DNA of 64,000 nucleotides from Dictyostelium discoideum (lineage: Eukaryota): NCBI GenBank assembly GCA_000004695.1, contig CM000151.3, forward strand, positions 3,872,001 to 3,936,000. The letters are read 5' to 3'. The notes under the pieces were generated by a model that was not told the origin of the DNA, made no database searches, and saw only the letters and a program-made list of their open reading frames with translations. Of the stretch, positions 17,250-45,692 are shown in pieces. Both the position numbers and the translations under genes were made by a program. Position 1 is the first letter of the stretch; every line of letters starts with the position of its first letter.

Positions 17250-17950
17250 TTAAAATTGACCAGTTTTAATTTTTGGAGACATTGGTTTTTCATTCAACCA
17301 ATCACTTCTTTTTTCAAATTTGGTAGTTTTTCCATCACTATCTTTTTTGATCATAATTTCTTCTTTTTTGATTAATTTTGGAGAGTTGAGACCAGTTGTT
17401 TGAGTCATTTGAGTAGTGGTTTGAGTGAATTCAGAAGCCATTTTAGCACCCTTTGAAATGGATAGGATTGGTGCTGGCATTGGTTTAACATTGAGTACAC
17501 AACTATCGGATTTTTGTAAGATAATTTCAGGAGTACCTTTGAATTCAGAGATTCTAACGATTGGTTCACTTCTAAAGAGTTTAATTAATGGTTCTTGTTG
17601 AGAGACATTAATATTTGGTGGAGTTGCAGCTGCGAATGAAACCATTGGTTTTGAGGATTGAATTTGAACTTCTGGTTTTTGTTGATTAATGATAACTGAT
17701 GCTTTTGGTTGGTTTACACTAACCATTGGTTCTCTTTGAATAAATTCAACTCTTGGTGCCATTTGATTCACATCAATGATTGGTGCATGTTGATCCAAAA
17801 AGATTCTTGGTGCTGGTTGTTGAATTTCAACTTGTGCTGCTGGTACTGTAACTTCAGCTCTTAATGATTTTTCAACAACATCCAAATCTGTTGCATTCTC
17901 TTTAATGATAATTTCTGGTGGAACTTCATAGACATTAATATTGTCCTTAC
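17250..17950 (-). CDS. Repeat-protein paralogue A, exon 2 (GKDNINVYEVPPEIIIKENATDLDVVEKSLRAEVTVPAAQVEIQQPAPRI...; tandem PxVxVxQ-type repeats)
   Basis: acceptor ataAG at 17952-51 restores frame (G+GT); ORF 17250..17885 plus 5' extension; about 12-residue repeats xP.V.V.Q..P. Confidence 0.6.
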
Positions 17951-19056: not shown

Positions 19057-19057
<1 letters not shown>

Positions 19058-19647
19058 TGGTTGAAAAAGTTTATTCAAGTTCACCAAAGCAACAAGCTGA
19101 TGAAAGAGTTTATTCAACAACAGGAAATGCTGGAACCTATAGGGATAGCTACGATATTTCAGTTAAACAACAACCAGCTCATTTAACATTTGATCAAACA
19201 CCAATGTATTTAGAATTGAATGAAATCGCTAAACATATTTCAGTGGAGAGAGCTCAACCAACCGTTAACATTGGTCGTGCCGCCGATTTAATTCAAGTTA
19301 AACAAGAACCAGTTCAAGTCCAAGTTCAACAAAATGCAACCGATGTAAATGTTACCACTGAACAACAAGTTATCGAAGTTCAACAAGTTGCTCCAGAAGT
19401 TGAAATTGAACAATATATGCCAAAATTCTATCTTAAAATGCCACCATTCCGTGTTCATTTGGAAATGGACGGTGCTCCTGAAATCATTATGGAACCATAT
19501 CAACCTTCCATTAAAGTTAAACAATCTGATCCAATCGTTCGTGTAACTAAACCTGATCCAAGAGTTTTAGTTACTGAAAATCCACCAAAAATTGATATCA
19601 TTCAAAATGCTTCTTCTGTTGATGTTATTCCTTCAACTAAAGCTTCT
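19057..19647 (+). CDS. Repeat-protein paralogue B, exon 1 (PxVxVxQ repeats: QPTVNIG.., EPVQVQVQQ, VIEVQQVAPEVEIEQ, SDPIVRVTKPDPRVLVTENPPKIDIIQ)
   Basis: ATG 19057; donor TCT|GTAAGT at 19648. Confidence 0.7.
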
Positions 19648-19739
19648 GTAAGTTTTAATTATTTTAAAAAATCTTATATATATATATTAATAATTATACT
19701 AACTTTTTTTTTTTTTTTTTTTTTTTTTAAAATTAATAG

Positions 19740-20538
19740 ATCCAAGTTAAAGAAGATAAACCAAAGATTACTATTCAAGAATATAATCCAACAATGACAT
19801 TTAGAGAAGGTGAAACTAAATTTGATTATAAATCATTCCAACCAGAAGTTCAATGGGAGAATCCAACACCAAAGGTTACAGTTTCACAAGGTGAACCAAC
19901 AATTAGAGTTTCACAAGATACACCATCAATCGGACTTAAGAATAGAGAACCATCAGTTACTATCAATACTAAAGCACCAAAGATCGATGTTCATCATCAT
20001 CCATTATCAGTATCTGTCGTTGAGCCAGCTACAACTGTTCATTTCGGTAATCCAAATAGCTATGCTGCCGCTGCCGCTCATCAACCACATGAACATAATT
20101 GGGAAGAAATTAAAGCAATTAAAGTTGACCAACCATTAGAGAAAATCGGTCATTTCTATTCCCCATCTGAAAAGACCCTAACTTCATTCAATTTATGGAA
20201 AAACATATTAACCTCAACTGAAAAAGTTATTGCAAACAAAGGTGTTGGTAGAAATTTCTTTACCCTTATCGACACTCATGAAAATAAAATCTGTGAATGT
20301 TTCAAAGAGGATTTAGGTCTCCACAGATTCAATCTCAACATTCGTTCTTCAACTGGTGACCTTTTATTCAAAGGTGAATCTCAAGGTCGTACACTTAAAC
20401 TCTTTGATACTCAAGGTACTTTATTCTGTACCGTTGAATGTAGTAAAGATCAAGTAGAATGTTTCAATGATAAAGGTCAATTATGTTTCAATTTATTACC
20501 AAATTCTATGAAATGGTTCTTTGATATTAGAAACAAAG
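19740..20538 (+). CDS. Paralogue B exon 2 (IQVKEDKPKITIQEYNPTMTFREGE...EPTIRVSQDTPSIGLKNREPSVTINTKAPKIDVHHHP..., then a Cys-containing beta-rich C-terminal domain, possibly LURP-one/tubby-like)
   Basis: acceptor aatAG at 19738-39; ORF 19794..20543; donor G|GTTAGT at 20539. Confidence 0.65.
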
Positions 20539-20672
20539 GTTAGTAGTATTATATTAAATTTTAATTTATAATAATAATGTTTTATATATAATTCTCTCTC
20601 TAATACATTATTCTTTTTTTTTTTCTTTTTCTTTTTTTTTAATTGTAATAAAAACTAATACTACCAATTTAG

Positions 20673-38316: not shown

Positions 38317-38930
38317 AAAAAGAAAAAAGAAAAAAGTTAATTTAAAAATATCTATTTGTGATTAATTATTTTTTTATTTATTTTATTTACTAACTTGATA
38401 ACATTTTTGTTATAAGCTTTTTAAAAGTTCTTTTTTAGTTTTTTTTTTTTTTTTTTTTTTACTTGGGATTCTTTATTTTATTTAATTTTTTAAATTTGAA
38501 TTACCTGTTTTATTTTTTTTATTTTTTTTATTTTTTTTTTATAAAAATATAAAAATTATTTTTTGATAAAGAGCCATTTTTAAAAAATCAATTATATTTT
38601 TTGGTAAAAGATTTTTGTAATGATTTCTTTTATTTGACCATTATAAGATTTTTTTTTTTTTTTTTTTTTTTTGTTGTGAATTTAATTTTTTTTTATTTTT
38701 TTTTTATTTATATATAGATAATTTAAATGATGTCTTCAAACTGATCAATATTTTGATTTGTCAGATAATTTTTAATGATCACTTTTGATTTTATTATGAT
38801 AATTAATTGTTGAAATGCACATTTATTTTTTTTTATTTGCTAGCAAAAATTTTAAAATAAAAATAATAGAGTTTAAAATATTAAATTAAGGAGGATTATA
38901 TTTTTAAATAATTTCTGTTATAATTTTTAC

Positions 38931-38961
<31 letters not shown>

Positions 38962-39401
38962 TAGATTTTTTTGATCAAATTATATTATATATTAATATAT
39001 ATTTATTTTATTATATGGATCAAAATAAATTAATTTAGATTACCACTAATTTTATTCAAAATCTCTAAATCTATGTGGGTTTTATATTCATTTAAATAAA
39101 AGTAAACACACAAAAATAAAAATAAAAATATGGGGGAAATTTAAAATAATAATTATATTTTATTTATTTTTTTATTTTATAATATATTTATTATATTTAT
39201 TTAAATTTGTCTTTTTTTACTTTTTTTAAAAAAAAATTGGATTTGAGGGTGGTTTTATATAAATAAAAAAGATCATTATTATTATTACTTTTTTTTATTT
39301 ATTTATCTATAAATTTTATTTTATTTTATTTTATTTTAATTTAATTTGTTTTTGACCCAAACCCCCAATTATTTTTTGTAGTTTTGTGACTGATGTTGGT
39401 G

Positions 39402-40832
39402 TTATGTTGATGGTGTTAGTGGTTTAACTGAAAATAAATTTGGAATTCCACCAATAAATCCGCTCTTTTCTGATGGTTGTTGGTTTGTTGAGGTTGTTGT
39501 CGATCTAGTGGAAATTCCACTAAGGAATCCACTTGGTTTTGGTGTTTCATTAGCATTTGTTGTAGATATTGCTGGTGATGTTGTAGAAGGTTTTTTAGTT
39601 ACTGTAGGTGGTAAAGTTGGTTTTATATTTGAAAATTCACCGATGTATCCACTTTTTTCAGTGGTTTGCGTAATACCTCCAATCAATCCACCAAATGGAG
39701 CATTTCCAGTTGTTGAGGTTGATTGGGTATTTGAGGTTGGTATAAAACCTATTAAACCTGGCAATAGATTGGATGGCGGAGGAGTAGAATGCGTTTGAGT
39801 TGGGGTTGGTGTTTGAGTTTGAGTTTGAGTTGGTGTTTGAGTTTGAGTTGGTGTTGGTGTTTGAGTTTGAGTTGGAGTTTGTGTTTGAGTTTGTATTGGT
39901 TTTGGAGTTTGAGTTTGTGTTGGAGTTTGTGTTTGGGTTTGAGTTGGTGTTGGTGTTTTAGTTTGAGTTGGTTTTGGAGTTTGGGTTTGTGTTGGAGTTT
40001 GTGTTTGAGTTTGAGTTGGTGTTGATGTTTGAGTTTGAGTTGGTGTTTGTGTTTGAGTTTGTGTTTGTGTTTGTGTTTGTGTTGGTGTTTGTGTTGGTGT
40101 TTGTGTTTGAGTTTGTGTTTGTGTTGGTTTTGGAGTTTGTGTTTGTGTTGGAGTTTGTGTTTGTGTTGAATTTTGTGTTTGTGTTTGTGTTTGTGTTTGT
40201 GTTTGTGTTTGTGTTGGTGTTGGTGTTGGTGTGTGGGTTTGTGTTGGTGTTGGAGTTGGAGTTTGTGTTGGAGTTGGAGTTTGTGTTGGAGTCGGAGTTT
40301 GGGTTGGTGTTGGTGTTGGAGTTTGAGTTGTTGGTGTTTGTGTTGGTGTTTGCGTTGGAGTTTGTGTTGGTGTTGGTGTTTGAGTTGATGTTTGTGTTGG
40401 TGTCGAGGTTGGTGTATTGATTCCACCTAAAAAGCCTCCAAAGAAACCAGATGCTTTTGTTGGTGTTGGTGTTGGTGTTGTTGATATTGATGTTGGTGTT
40501 GTTGATATTGATGTTGGTGTTGAGGATGGTGCATTGATACCACCAAAAATGCCTCATAAGAAACCAGATGCTTTTGTTGGTGTTGGTGTTGGTGTTTGAG
40601 TTTGAGTTGGTGTTGGTGTTAGTGTTGGTGTTATTGTTGGGGTTTGAGTTGGGGTTGGTGTTAGTGTTGGTGTTGGTGTTAGGGTTTGAGTTTGTGTTGG
40701 TGTTGGTGCTATTGTTATTGTTGGGGTTTGAGTTTGTCTTTGAGTTTGTGTAGGTGTTGGTGTTTGAGTTGGTGTTGGTGTTGGTGTTTGTGTTTGGGTT
40801 GGTGTTGGTGTATTGTAACCTCCAAAATAGCC
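39402..40832 (-). repeat. 1.4-kb coding-type hexanucleotide (AACACC/AACTCA) Pro/Thr/Gln repeat array, open in the same frame as upstream gene D, with interspersed K(A/E)SGF(L/F)GG(Y/I/F)FGG(Y/I)N(T/A)P units; lies 3' of the first in-frame TGA of gene D
   Basis: the PT reading frame is continuous from 41834 to 39402 except for two TGA codons (40835-33 and about 40550), each replacing the GGA Gly codon of the unit GFL-G-G; the track's overlapping ORFs on both strands here are alternative frames of the repeat. Confidence 0.7.
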
Positions 40833-41834
40833 TCATAAGAAACCAGATGCTTTAGTTGGAGTGGGTGTTGGTGTTTGTGATTGGGTGGCTGTAGTTGTAG
40901 TTGTAGGTGTTGGTGTTGGTGTAGGTGTATTGTAGCCACCGAAATAGCCTCCTAAAAAACCAGATTCTTTAGTTGGAGTGGGTGTTGGTGTTTGTGATTG
41001 AGTGGGTGTAGTTGTAGGTGTTGGTGTAGGTAGTGGTTGGGTTGGTGAAGGTGTTTGAATAGGTTGTGTTGTACCAGTTGTTGAACCACCAAATAAACCA
41101 CCCAAGAAACTAGATACTGGTTTTTGAGTTGGATTTGGGGTTGGAGTTGAGGTTGGGGTTGGAGTTGATGAAAGTGTTTGTGCGGGTGTTGGTGTTGATC
41201 CACCACCACCTATAAATCCACCTAAAAAACCACTTGATGGTTTCGATGTTGGAGTTGGAGTTAAAGATGGTGTTACACCACCATTTGTACTTCCACCACT
41301 TATGAAACCACCAATGAAACCAGTACCACCACCATTTGGTTGGGTAGGTACAGGGGTTTGAGTTTTAAAACCACCACTACCTCCACCTAATAAACCACCT
41401 AACAAACCTGAAGATCCGCCACCTAATAAAGCACCACCAATTAAATGTGGGATATTATCAACTCCAATTAAACCAGAAGTTGATGTAACACGTGGACATA
41501 ATAATTTTGCTTCAATGATTGCACCAAATAAACCACTAAATAAATTTGATAGACCAAATATTGATTTTTGTACTCTTTCATCCATATTATCTTGATCCAT
41601 AATAATTATACCTTTATTAACTGGAATCCCATCTTTATTAAACAATTCAGGATAACAAAAGTTTCTATATTTTGAACATAATGAAGTAATCTTTACATCA
41701 ATATTATCAACTAAATAGTTTAAATCATAATTTTGATCTGTTAAATAATTTTTAATTCTTGATATAAAATATTTTTGTTTTTCATCTTCATTTAATTTAT
41801 TAAATAATTTTAAAGATACATCATTTTTATCATT
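40833..41834 (-). CDS. Secreted Cys-pair/GxLGG-repeat protein D, exon 2 (NDKNDVSLKLFNKL...CSKYRNFCYPELF...GLIGV..LIGGALLGGGSSGLLGGLLGGG..., then PT-rich linker with GFLGG units), to the first TGA
   Basis: acceptor tttAG at 41836-35; ORF 40833..41645 extended 5'; terminates at TGA 40835-40833. Confidence 0.65.
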   Translation of the reverse strand, partial: NDKNDVSLKLFNKLNEDEKQKYFISRIKNYLTDQNYDLNYLVDNIDVKITSLCSKYRNFCYPELFNKDGIPVNKGIIIMDQDNMDERVQKSIFGLSNLFSGLFGAIIEAKLLCPRVTSTSGLIGVDNIPHLIGGALLGGGSSGLLGGLLGGGSGGFKTQTPVPTQPNGGGTGFIGGFISGGSTNGGVTPSLTPTPTSKPSSGFLGGFIGGGGSTPTPAQTLSSTPTPTSTPTPNPTQKPVSSFLGGLFGGSTTGTTQPIQTPSPTQPLPTPTPTTTPTQSQTPTPTPTKESGFLGGYFGGYNTPTPTPTPTTTTTATQSQTPTPTPTKASGFL

Positions 41835-41920
41835 CTAAAAATGGAAAATTAAAAATAAAAAAAAATAAAAATTAGAAAAATAATATTAAAAAAAATCTAT
41901 AAGATCCTTATAATAATTAC

Positions 41921-42055
41921 TCTTAAATCAACTATAAATTTATTTCTGTTTATTTCATCAACTTCACTTTCTTCTTGATAGATTTCATTTGCATTAGAAT
42001 TTCCCATAAAAAATATAAAAATAAAAAGTATTACAATTATTTTTAATATTTTCAT
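41921..42055 (-). CDS. Protein D exon 1: signal peptide (MKILKIIVILFIFIFFMGNSNA...)
   Basis: ATG 42055; hydrophobic signal with cleavage site; donor AGA|GTAATT at 41920. Confidence 0.65.
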
Positions 42056-42879
42056 TTTTTTTATTTTTTTTTTTTATTTTTGAAAACAAAAGATAGAATA
42101 TTAAAAAATATAATTAAAATTTAAAAAAAATTTATAATTAATAATTAAGTTTGAAATAAAATATAAAAAAAAATATGAAAAAAAAAAAATATCAGGATTT
42201 ATATATAAAAAACAATTATATATTTTAAATATATAAATTATTAATTCAATGTTTTTTTTAGTTTAATATTGTTCAATATTCAAACAAATAATTTCATTGA
42301 GCCCATTTATTATTATTAGTATGCTATATACTATGGTGATAACCATTAATGAAAAATAAAAATAAAAATAAAAATAAAAATAAAAATAAAAATAAAAATG
42401 TATAAAAACAGTTAACACAGTAAGAAACTGGGGGTAAACAATTTTCAACAATATAAATAGAAATTATTTGTATGTTAATCATTGGTCAATAACCCCCAAG
42501 TTGAACATTTATTTGTAAAATGGATTTTTCGATTTTTTTTAAAATTTTCATTAAAATCTACTTCTATATGGGTATTATATGGGTATATGGATACAATAAA
42601 AATACAAGTAATTATAATTTCAATAAAAAAAAGAAAAAAAAAAAAAAAAAAAAAAAATCTTCAGATTTTAACCATATAAACATTATGAAATTATTAAATA
42701 AAATGAAAAAATTAGATGTAAAAAAAAATTATAAATTACCTTATTTGTTTATTTTTTTAGTAGAAAAAGATAATAAAAAAAAAAAAAAAATAAAAAAAAA
42801 AAATTAAAAAAAAAAAAAATTAAAATAAGGTATATACTAAAGGAAATTGTTAATTTTAAAAATTTTTATTTATTTAATT

Positions 42880-43992
42880 TTATTTTTTTGAAAGTGCTGG
42901 TGAAACTTTTGAAAGATTATTTTCAATTTCAATATTATCAATTTGGTTATTATTTTCAACCTTTTTATCTTGTTGATGTTGTTGATTATACTTTTGAGTG
43001 AATAAATCAACGATATTTAAGAATTGGTCAAAGTAACTTGCATAATCTGATAAAGTACTCTCAGATTTTGGTGAATTTGTTTGAACAACTGGTGGTGATT
43101 GAGTATTTGGTTGTTGTGGTTGTGGTGGTTGTGGTGGTGGTAATGTTGGAGCAGGAGTTGGTTTTTTAGTTTGAGGTGGTTGTTCAGTTTGAGGTGGTTT
43201 TGTTTTAACAACTGGAATAGATGGTTGTGGTTGTGTTTGAACTGGAATATCTGGAATCTCATTTAAAATTGGTACAAGTTCATCAAATTCCTCTTGATTT
43301 TCTTCATTTTGTTGTCTTTCCAATTGTTGTTGAAGTGCCAATGCAGCCAAACGTGCTTTTTCCTCCATTTCACGTCTATGTTGAGATTCCCTATAATCTC
43401 TCTCCATTTGAAGTTGTGCTTCAAGTTGAGCTTGTCTATCTTGTGAAGTTGGATTTTGATTTTGATTTTGATTTTGATTTTGATTTTGATTTTGATTTGA
43501 AATTTGATTTTGATTTGAAATTTGATTTTGATTTGGAATTGGTTGATTTTGTTGATACTGTTGGAAATTTTGAGCGATTGGTGCATTTTGTCTATTGTCT
43601 GGTTCATTTTGAGTATTTATTGAAGCGGCTATTGGTGGTCCATTTGTACCACCTATTAAACCACCTAATAAATTTAAACTAATTAATAATCTTTCCAATT
43701 TCTTATTGGTTTCAGCAGAGAATTTAAAATCATTTGATTTAATATTATCTTGAATTAATTTTACAATTTCATCAGATTTTGATTGTAATATTACTTTTGC
43801 TGTTGATAATAAATTTTCAGGTAATTGATTATTATAAATTGAACATTTCTCTGGTTTATAACTACATGCATATGTTATTACACTAACTAATTGATTTTGA
43901 TTTAAATTATATTTATTTGCATATTCTTGAATTTGTCCAATAACTTTTTCAATTACAAATGATTTAGCATCATTTTCATTATTTTTAATTTC
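42880..43992 (-). CDS. Secreted Cys-pair/GxLGG protein E, exon 2 (EIKNNENDAKSFVIEKVIGQIQEYANKYNL...YACSYKPEKCSIYNNQLPENLL...LLISLNLLGGLIGGTNGPP..., (NQ)n, coiled region, P/Q-rich tail)
   Basis: acceptor tttAG at 43994-93; ORF 42880..43698 extended 5'; contains a (GATTTT)n-encoded NQNQNQ tract; paralogue of D and F. Confidence 0.65.
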   Translation of the reverse strand, partial: EIKNNENDAKSFVIEKVIGQIQEYANKYNLNQNQLVSVITYACSYKPEKCSIYNNQLPENLLSTAKVILQSKSDEIVKLIQDNIKSNDFKFSAETNKKLERLLISLNLLGGLIGGTNGPPIAASINTQNEPDNRQNAPIAQNFQQYQQNQPIPNQNQISNQNQISNQNQNQNQNQNQNQNPTSQDRQAQLEAQLQMERDYRESQHRREMEEKARLAALALQQQLERQQNEENQEEFDELVPILNEIPDIPVQTQPQPSIPVVKTKPPQTEQPPQTKKPTPAPTLPPPQPPQPQQPNTQSPPVVQTNSPKSESTLSDYASYFDQFLNIVDLFTQKYNQQHQQDKKVENNNQIDNIEIENNLSKVSPALSKK

Positions 43993-44121
43993 CTAAATAA
44001 AAATGAATAATAAACAAAAAATAAAAAAATAAAAAATAAAAATAAAAAATTTGTTTAGAAAAAAAAAAATAAAAAAAATTATAAAAAAATAAAAAAAATT
44101 AAAAAAAGTAGTTATAGTTAC

Positions 44122-44187
44122 TTCAGATAAAACCAATGAATATAATAAAGATAATATTAAAATAAATAATATTTTCTTAAACACCAT
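44122..44187 (-). CDS. Protein E exon 1: signal peptide (MVFKKILFILILSLLYSLVLSE)
   Basis: ATG 44187; donor GAA|GTAACT at 44121. Confidence 0.65.
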
Positions 44188-45071: not shown

Positions 45072-45527
45072 TTAATGTTGTTTTTGAGGCAATAGTGGCG
45101 GTTTTGTTGGAGAAGAAGTTGTTAAACCACCAAGAACAGGTGTATTTAAAATTCTATCTCTATAACATTGAGCTTCTAATAATATACCAACTGTATCAAC
45201 GGTTAAATTAATTGCATCACCTAAAATTGGAATTTTACAAATTAACAATGTATTACAAAGTGTTTTAATATAACTTTCCAATGTAATTGGATCGAATCCA
45301 ATCTCTGAAAAATAATCTCTAATTTGATCTAAAAAGAATGCCAATATTTTATCATTTTCAAATAATTGAATTTGATTTGAAAATTTAACCATTGATGAAT
45401 TAAAATTATTATAATTTCCATTTTTAAATTCATCACTATTTAAAATTAATTTCATTTGTTTAATTTGACTATCAACATATATTTCACTCTTTTCATTACT
45501 TTTAAATTTAGTTTTTTTCCATTTTAT
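45072..45527 (-). CDS. Secreted Cys-pair/GxLGG protein F, exon 2 (IKWKKTKFKSNEKSEIYVDSQIKQMKLILNSDEF...IKTLCNTLLICKIPILGDAINLTVDTVGILLEAQCYRDRILNTPVLGGLTTSSPTKPP...)
   Basis: acceptor ttatAG at 45529-28; ORF 45072..45455 extended 5'. Confidence 0.6.
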   Translation of the reverse strand: MKWKKTKFKSNEKSEIYVDSQIKQMKLILNSDEFKNGNYNNFNSSMVKFSNQIQLFENDKILAFFLDQIRDYFSEIGFDPITLESYIKTLCNTLLICKIPILGDAINLTVDTVGILLEAQCYRDRILNTPVLGGLTTSSPTKPPLLPQKQH

Positions 45528-45620
45528 CTATAAAATAAATAAAAAAAATAAAAAAAAAAAACCATTTAAGTAAAGGAATTTTATTTATTTATTTTTTTAT
45601 TTATATAATTTAATTTTTAC

Positions 45621-45692
45621 AGGTGAAGCAAAACATGAACTAATTATTAAGAAAGAAATAAAAAATATTAATATAAACTTATTAATCTTCAT
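45621..45692 (-). CDS. Protein F exon 1: signal peptide (MKINKFILIFFISFLIISSCFASP)
   Basis: ATG 45692; donor CCT|GTAAAA at 45620. Confidence 0.6.

Follow-up and report, generated by a model that had tools for sequence, protein, structure and literature searches.

Two TGA codons at homologous positions in the repeat units of a predicted secreted-protein gene of Dictyostelium discoideum

Structure of gene D and the position of its two TGA codons

Gene D is located on the minus strand of a 64,000-nucleotide (nt) stretch of Dictyostelium discoideum DNA (contig CM000151.3, positions 3,872,001 to 3,936,000), and its long repeat-containing reading frame is interrupted twice by TGA. This stretch is referred to as the window, with coordinates counted from its first base. 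The window contains 12–15% G+C between genes and 20–40% inside them, and its genes carry poly-Asn/Gln tracts and introns that are short and AT-rich. Together with the D. purpureum relative described below, these features point to a group-4 dictyostelid. Exon 1 of gene D (41921..42055, minus strand) starts with an ATG at 42055; its 45 codons begin with a hydrophobic N-terminus, MKILKIIVILFIFIFFMGNSNA, followed by NE; by inspection of the sequence, this N-terminus is a putative signal peptide. Intron 1 (41835..41920, minus) is 86 nt long, runs from GTAATT to TTTTAG in phase 0, and is 90% A+T. The introns of the two genes neighboring gene D, at 93 and 129 nt and 92–93% A+T, are alike in style. 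The exon 2 frame (41834..39402, minus) comprises 811 codons and contains exactly three stops, namely TGA at 40835..40833, TGA at 40556..40554, and a terminal TAA at 39404..39402. The other two frames across the same interval contain 31 and 38 stops. The original prediction, made from the sequence alone, had described a signal-peptide exon, a Cys-containing domain, and GxxGG and Pro/Thr repeats in a single frame of about 2.4 kb with only two internal stops, both TGA; the gene model holds, and translation of 41834..39402 confirms the frame and its stops.

Exon 2 begins with a non-repetitive N-terminal domain (41349..41834, minus) containing three Cys residues (SLCSKYRNFCYPE ... AKLLCPR), followed by a GxLGG run. 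The adjoining repeat units u1 to u4, the start of u5, and their Pro/Thr spacers (40836..41348, minus) would form the final part of a 378-residue product if the first TGA terminates translation. This first TGA (40833..40835, minus) is found in unit u5 (KASGFL-stop-GYFGGYN) in the context TTC TTA TGA GGC. It is separated from the second TGA (40554..40556, minus), found in unit u6 (KASGFL-stop-GIFGGIN), by a segment of 92 codons of Thr/Pro/Gln repeats (40557..40832, minus) with a codon-usage score of +0.79, in frame 0 only. The repeats past the second TGA (39765..40553, minus) consist of unit u7 and approximately 610 nt of ACA/CCA/CAA/ACT hexamer repeats with periods of 6 and 24. They give way to a non-repetitive C-terminal tail of 120 codons (39405..39764, minus) with the motifs GLIGF, GGLIGG, SGYIGE, SGFLSG, and SGFIGG, and finally to the TAA (39402..39404, minus) that is the stop of the ancestral long frame. 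TAA is the usual stop within the window. The window contains 16 open frames of 300 codons or more, terminated by TAA in 14 cases, by TAG in one, and by TGA in one, which is gene D itself; this fits TGA being rare as a natural terminator in this genome.

The conceptual protein therefore reads, in order, as a three-Cys domain, a GxLGG run, nine SGF(L/I/F)GG-type units with Thr/Pro/Gln spacers, and a 120-residue non-repetitive end. An intact long open reading frame (ORF) would comprise approximately 856 codons; the product up to the first TGA is 378 residues, with 476 codons remaining, and conceptual peptides past the TGAs include STTTSTNQQPSEK and SGFIGGIPNLFSVKPLTPST. Long Thr/Pro-rich low-complexity spacers are present, and to judge from the sequence the product is probably secreted, heavily O-glycosylated, and mucin-like. 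Pfam returned no significant family for gene D, its tail, or genes B and C, the two neighbors. A single-sequence AlphaFold2 model of the N-terminal domain had a mean predicted local distance difference test (pLDDT) value of 35.8 and was unusable.

Units u4 to u7 share the pattern K(E/A)SGF(L/F)-x-G(Y/I/F)(F/L)GG(Y/I)N. The codon at position x is GGA in u4 (40950..40952, minus; KESGFL-G-GYFGGYN), TGA in u5 (40835) and u6 (40556), and GGA in u7 (40437..40439, minus; KASGFF-G-GFLGGIN), while the remaining five of the nine units carry GGT in four cases and AGT in one. Because all seven other units have a sense codon there (two GGA, four GGT, one AGT), Gly appears to be ancestral at x, and unit comparison identifies both stops as G>T changes at the homologous base. 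This confirms the earlier placement of both TGAs at the homologous Gly position of a recurring unit. The coordinate first given for the first TGA, 40835, is correct; the second TGA begins at 40556 rather than at about 40550, and the GGA codons at 40952 and 40439 rather than at 40930 and 40430.

The two TGA-bearing units are 279 nt apart and share an identical 24-nt core, AAAGCATCTGGTTTCTTATGAGGC, that is, AAAGCATCTGGTTTCTTA-TGA-GGC. Directly 3′ of this core they differ (TAT TTT GGA GGT TAC in u5 versus ATT TTT GGT GGT ATC in u6). Repeat units of 117 nt occur in two arrays with 78–84% matches. Across 136 nt, u5 is nearest to u4 (117/136 identical), and u6 is about equally near to u4, u5, and u7 (105–106/136 identical), so the TGA state cuts across the relatedness of the units.

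An identical 24-nt context at both TGAs also fits a systematic, k-mer-dependent error. Under such a sequencing or assembly artifact, the gene would have an intact ORF of approximately 856 codons with GGA at both sites, and the T calls would stem either from an error specific to the context or from one that arose in a single unit and spread to a near-identical repeat during consensus building. The two GGA units depart from the TGA context within 3–6 nt, the remainder of the frame is flawless, and repeat-rich DNA is hard to assemble; in fact, the assembly of Dictyostelium purpureum breaks at this very gene. However, the change is a clean substitution with no homopolymer-length error, the unique differences directly 3′ of the core would let single reads anchor the units, and the error would be needed twice. 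Moreover, G>T is also common as a genuine mutation in D. discoideum (PMC7466956). An artifact consequently seems rather unlikely to us.

Coding character and decoding of the tail

The original prediction treated the openness of the 1.4 kb downstream of the first TGA as evidence in itself, and this is correct only in part. The spacer past the first TGA, 1.07 kb long, is 85–87% A+C and 3–4% G, with period-6 and period-24 repeats. Whichever of the three frames is read, A/C-only hexamer repeats coding for Thr, Pro, and Gln contain almost no stops; the openness of this ~1.07 kb is therefore largely compositional, and the locus shows how such repeats mimic open frames in every frame. Slippage by 6 nt in hexamer repeats also preserves the frame automatically, as do 3n indels, of which D. 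discoideum has been reported to have a high share (PMC7466956). Spurious ORFs at 39752..40836 include two on the minus strand, of 224 amino acids (aa; His/Lys/Gln-rich) and 292 aa (Asn/Thr-rich), and one of 150 aa on the plus strand (Phe/Val/Leu-rich). The A/C-only repeats in this interval are thus a trap for ORF-based annotation, and the G-C skew is extreme (+0.77 on the plus strand, 40001..41000).

The weight of the argument rests only on the last 360 nt and on the codon-usage signal. In the last 360 nt (120 codons) there are no stops in frame 0, versus 6 and 8 in the other frames, and the chance of finding no stop in this tail was 0.0008 in mononucleotide shuffles. Codon usage was scored as log-odds, with seven long ORFs of the window supplying the reference table. 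The score upstream of the first TGA is +0.70, and this is matched by every post-TGA segment, with +0.53 to +0.82 in frame 0 versus −0.67 to −1.14 in the other frames. Third codon positions after the TGA are 87–93% A/T, like those of the upstream part, and 87% A/T in the non-repetitive tail.

The signals for transcript ends are found at the far end of the tail. From 41618 to 39345 the transcribed strand lacks both AATAAA and ATTAAA, and the first cluster of these motifs is at 39299..39345 (minus), where A+T switches to >80% and the 3′ end region of the transcript may lie; a search for AATAAA over the whole window was uninformative. A+T is 54–66% throughout the tail and jumps to 80–94% below 39400, in the stretch that contains the cluster of poly(A)-type motifs. 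Because the motifs and the jump in A+T appear only beyond 39402, the ancestral gene presumably ended there. There is no in-frame ATG past 41585, which excludes expression of the tail as a gene of its own. The claim that the tail was coding very recently is therefore upheld by codon usage confined to frame 0, by an intact non-repetitive end, and by transcript-end signals only past 39402. On these sequence features, the tail belonged to the gene D coding sequence until very recently, or still does.

The absence of further stops can be used to date the loss of constraint. Mutation accumulation in D. discoideum yielded rates per site per generation of 4.36e-11 for G/C>A/T changes (7 transitions, 9 transversions) and 0.44e-11 for A/T>G/C changes (PMC7466956). 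Among the 476 post-TGA codons, 72 CAA, 17 TCA, 12 AAA, and 11 GGA could each become a stop by a single change, which for the 72 CAA codons is C>T, giving TAA. At the published rates (PMC7466956), stops would arise in the 476-codon tail at approximately 2.7–3.0e-9 per generation. One further stop is expected after ~1.2% neutral divergence of the tail, and its absence bounds the unconstrained period at ~3.5% divergence (95%). Because no further stop has appeared despite the 72 CAA and other near-stop codons, any constraint on the tail would have been lost recently.

A continuous protein could also be restored by unconventional splicing, if both TGAs lay within an in-frame GT..AG intron such as 40843..40553. 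Several in-frame GT..AG pairs do flank the stops, among them 40843..40553 (291 nt) and 40960..40832 (129 nt), and an automatic gene predictor could yield such a model. Gly codons (G/GT) provide phase-1 donors, and TGAG/G provides phase-1 acceptors behind a T-rich stretch (TTTCTTATGAG). Since GGT Gly codons and TGAG/G supply phase-1 sites in this way, in-frame GT..AG pairs are trivially expected. Furthermore, the candidate introns are 56–58% A+T with the donors GTTTCT, GTTTTT, GTTACA, or GTACAA, whereas the three real local introns are 86–129 nt long, are 90–93% A+T, and start with GTAA. The putative intron also scores positive for codon usage in frame 0, as an exon would. Splicing around the stops thus appears highly improbable.

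Alternatively, both UGAs may be decoded, either by near-cognate tRNA readthrough or as selenocysteine (Sec), with the gene producing a short form of 378 residues and a scarce form of ~856 residues. TGA is the leakiest stop in most eukaryotes. Here the same stop, rare in the window, occurs twice, and the 476-codon tail is fully intact with an in-frame coding signature, although a recent nonsense mutation would leave such a signature too. D. discoideum has Sec machinery and five selenoproteins (PMC2375036), which speaks for decoding, as does the proposal, not yet a demonstration, that ERF3 aggregation in Dictyostelium permits readthrough (PMC11537047). Readthrough could possibly be raised by eRF3 sequestration during stress or development.

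Several observations stand against this explanation. The Sec insertion sequence (SECIS) elements of Dictyostelium vary unusually little among themselves: their AUGA core is preceded by UGUA, and their apical bulge contains AAA. Genome-wide searches of D. discoideum, including a relaxed, Dictyostelium-tuned one, found five selenoproteins only (PMC2375036). No SECIS-like element turned up in the 3′ region, where the original prediction had suggested looking for one: Rfam detected none at E≤10 over 38500..42300, where the sole match was a chance snoRNA (E = 9), and there is no TGTA..ATGA signature between 40835 and 38600 (800 nt past the TAA), four ATGA sites lacking such a context. The affected position is a Gly in a structural GG motif rather than a redox Cys, the seven paralogous positions being Gly in six cases and Ser in one. 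The +4 base is G (TTA TGA GGC) and not the leaky UGA-C or UGA-CUAG, although the rules for Dictyostelium itself may differ. The A/C-rich RNA that follows the stops has almost no structure (minimum free energies of −5.3 and −14.3 kcal/mol over 120 nt, z approximately −2, with only short local hairpins), and two serial stops multiply the inefficiency. A tRNA scan found no tRNA gene, and hence no suppressor tRNA, in the window. A literature search on natural readthrough genes or in-frame stops in Dictyostelium returned neither such a gene nor anything on this locus, and we know of no natural readthrough gene established in Dictyostelium.

Functional recoding is accordingly quite improbable, and the suggestion that the stops are tolerated or read through is disfavored by the UGA-G context, the lack of a SECIS or of strong downstream structure, and the serial arrangement. 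It is more doubtful still that the two UGAs are maintained as a serial, condition-dependent readthrough gate, with only the 378-residue form normally secreted. We give similarly little credence to the corollary that lower termination efficiency yields a small amount of the ~856-residue form, with its Thr/Pro/Gln stalk and GLIGG/GFIGG C-terminus. If the stops were read through, the locus would be a ready-made endogenous reporter. A +1 frameshift at TTA-TGA-G was also considered and rejected, as the frame entered meets a TAA at 40717 and never reaches the frame-0 tail.

An ortholog in D. purpureum and the neighboring genes

Word-indexed homology searches gave no matches for the 378-aa product, for the N-terminal 184 aa, or for the 129-aa tail. 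Exact look-up of the gene D models and of 17 other ORFs or models of the window also gave none, which is uninformative because the collection evidently lacks this genome. A phmmer search, run exhaustively on 1.84 billion representative proteins with the N-terminal domain, returned a sole match, the 135-aa protein P0001 (E = 1.2e-11, 51% identity), encoded on D. purpureum contig GL871444.1. Two metagenome scans, one for the 24-nt core with N in place of the G/T base and one for the N-terminal domain protein, found nothing.

The D. purpureum locus is syntenic, with a queuosine-salvage gene (Pfam Q_salvage) and the gene C ortholog (E = 3e-30) preceding the gene D ortholog in the same order, and the exon 2 N-terminal domain is 49% identical to the ortholog up to the end of the contig. 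This end is reached 29 nt past the annotated 135-aa fragment, at ...RVQKAIFDLS, which aligns with exon 2 residue 96 (...RVQKSIFGLS), so the ortholog stops short of the repeats. The frame of the ortholog (L001 10001..10531, GL871444.1) runs off the contig end, its model being truncated by the assembly, and the break is located ~60 residues before the Gly and Pro/Thr repeats would start. This suggests that repeats in D. purpureum also defeated the assembler.

These searches also have a bearing on whether gene D as a whole is a dead, unexpressed pseudogene in which the TGAs are merely the first visible lesions. Its in-frame stops occur in a fast-evolving, lineage-restricted gene with one relative among the 1.84 billion representative proteins, and no gene D protein is found in the collections, though these appear to lack this genome entirely. 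However, no lesion is seen in the start codon, the splice sites, or the upstream 378 codons, the codon usage of the upstream part (+0.70) and its other features are indistinguishable from those of a live gene, and an ortholog has been kept in synteny in D. purpureum. We therefore consider wholesale death of the gene unlikely.

The two genes upstream of gene D on the same strand (42880..44186 and 45072..45691, both minus) have the same build. Each consists of a short signal-peptide exon, an intron of 93–129 nt (92–93% A+T), and an exon with a Cys-x6-8-Cys pattern and an LGG-type motif (LLGGLIGG in gene C and VLGGL in gene B). BLASTP comparisons of gene D with genes B and C were not significant (E = 25 and 0.69), and a common ancestry of the three is suggested only by the shared exon architecture and the Cys-x6-8-Cys pattern. 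In D. purpureum, L001 contains no ORF of at least 80 aa between the queuosine-salvage gene and the gene C ortholog, where a gene B counterpart would be. Elsewhere in the window, at 17250..17885 (minus) and 19057..20543 (plus), there are three ORFs of degenerate (E/Q)P-x-(V/I)-x-V-x-Q repeats, for example QPAPRIFLDQHAPIIDVNQMAPRVEFIQREPMVSVNQ. The two plus-strand ORFs in 19057..20543 adjoin in different frames and overlap by 4 nt (19794..19797, ATGA).

Spread of the stop and comparison with known systems

G:C>T:A transversions are a major spontaneous class in D. discoideum, representing 9/16 of G/C>A/T events (PMC7466956). At the published rates, a second stop that arose independently would fall on a homologous GGA in only ~1.5–2.5% of cases, and copying between units is favored for this reason. 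Conversion or duplication is approximately 50 times likelier than recurrence. The spread by gene conversion envisaged in the original prediction is thus favored as far as copying in general is concerned; conversion itself is not proven, because the core shared by u5 and u6 carries no extra linked marker.

On balance, we lean toward a real and recent GGA>TGA nonsense change that was copied between units and left a 378-residue product, with the fossil tail serving as a 3′ untranslated region (UTR). In one K-A-S-G-F-L-G-G unit, the codon for the first Gly (GGA) would have become TGA by a G>T transversion, and the TGA state would have reached the second unit, 279 nt away, by short-tract intragenic gene conversion or by duplication of a repeat unit. 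Translation would then end at 40833, giving a 378-residue product that retains four intact glycine units as well as the N-terminal domain, and the 476 codons beyond that point, the non-repetitive C-terminus among them, would be untranslated. Since poly(A)-type signals are found only beyond the old TAA at 39402, transcription probably still covers the tail, which would form a GC-rich 3′ UTR of unusual length and would still look coding because there has been too little time for decay. Consistent with recent nonsense truncation, paralogous units of gene D have a sense codon where the stop now stands, and the tail continues in the same frame with no start of its own and with the old stop and poly(A) signals at its far end.

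Other points weigh against truncation. The absence of any other lesion across the 476 codons fits continued selection, as under readthrough, equally well, and a context-specific sequencing error would give the same pattern of two TGAs within one 24-nt context. That shared core equals the inferred ancestral unit save for the G>T change, with no linked marker. Finally, the searches found no ortholog that covers the tail, with either GGA or a translated tail.

If the truncation is genuine, gene D should be modeled as encoding a 378-residue product, or as a partial pseudogene, with no splicing around the stops, and the locus would provide an example of a nonsense codon copied between internal repeat units. 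The event is most likely of a well-known, ordinary kind, and only conservation or readthrough of the stops would make the locus more than a minor curiosity.

Gene D can be compared with several known systems. The Pro/Thr-rich O-glycosylated proteins of Dictyostelium include PsA/SP29 and the spore-coat glycoproteins. Like these, gene D has, after a putative signal peptide, long Thr/Pro spacers built from the preferred codons ACA, ACT, ACC, and CCA. Unlike them, it has no detectable sequence homology, and its SGFLGG motifs and Cys domain do not belong to a named family.

Programmed readthrough is exemplified by Drosophila kelch and headcase, yeast PDE2, and the gag-pol gene of murine leukemia virus. 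Gene D resembles these in having an in-frame UGA with a long coding-like extension, but differs in its UGA-G context, in the lack of a downstream stem-loop or pseudoknot, and in having two stops. Among selenoproteins, Dictyostelium MSP contains two Sec residues (PMC2375036). As in genes of the SelP/MSP kind, the frame of gene D contains TGA more than once, stays open and codon-biased thereafter, and belongs to a host with Sec machinery. However, gene D has neither a SECIS nor a Cys/redox context, and its homologous positions are Gly; it is not a member of this group.

Concerted evolution and gene conversion are features of tandem-repeat coding genes such as the yeast FLO/adhesin genes, mucins, and Dictyostelium repeat proteins. 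As in the FLO and mucin genes, a variant of gene D is common to non-adjacent units, and periods that are multiples of three preserve the frame. Slippage and a 3n indel bias are both documented for D. discoideum (PMC7466956). Unlike in those genes, the homogenized variant is a stop, and conversion is suggested by probability rather than by a flanking marker tract.

Nonsense-truncated alleles with a fossil 3′ coding region are represented by the flo8 allele of Saccharomyces cerevisiae S288C and by human CASP12. In these, as in gene D, a one-base change makes a conserved sense codon a stop, the codons downstream remain open and biased for some time, the transcript still ends at the former stop and poly(A) signals, and the N-terminal part may still work. 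The difference is that gene D has the stop in two homologous positions of its internal repeat, implying that it was copied.

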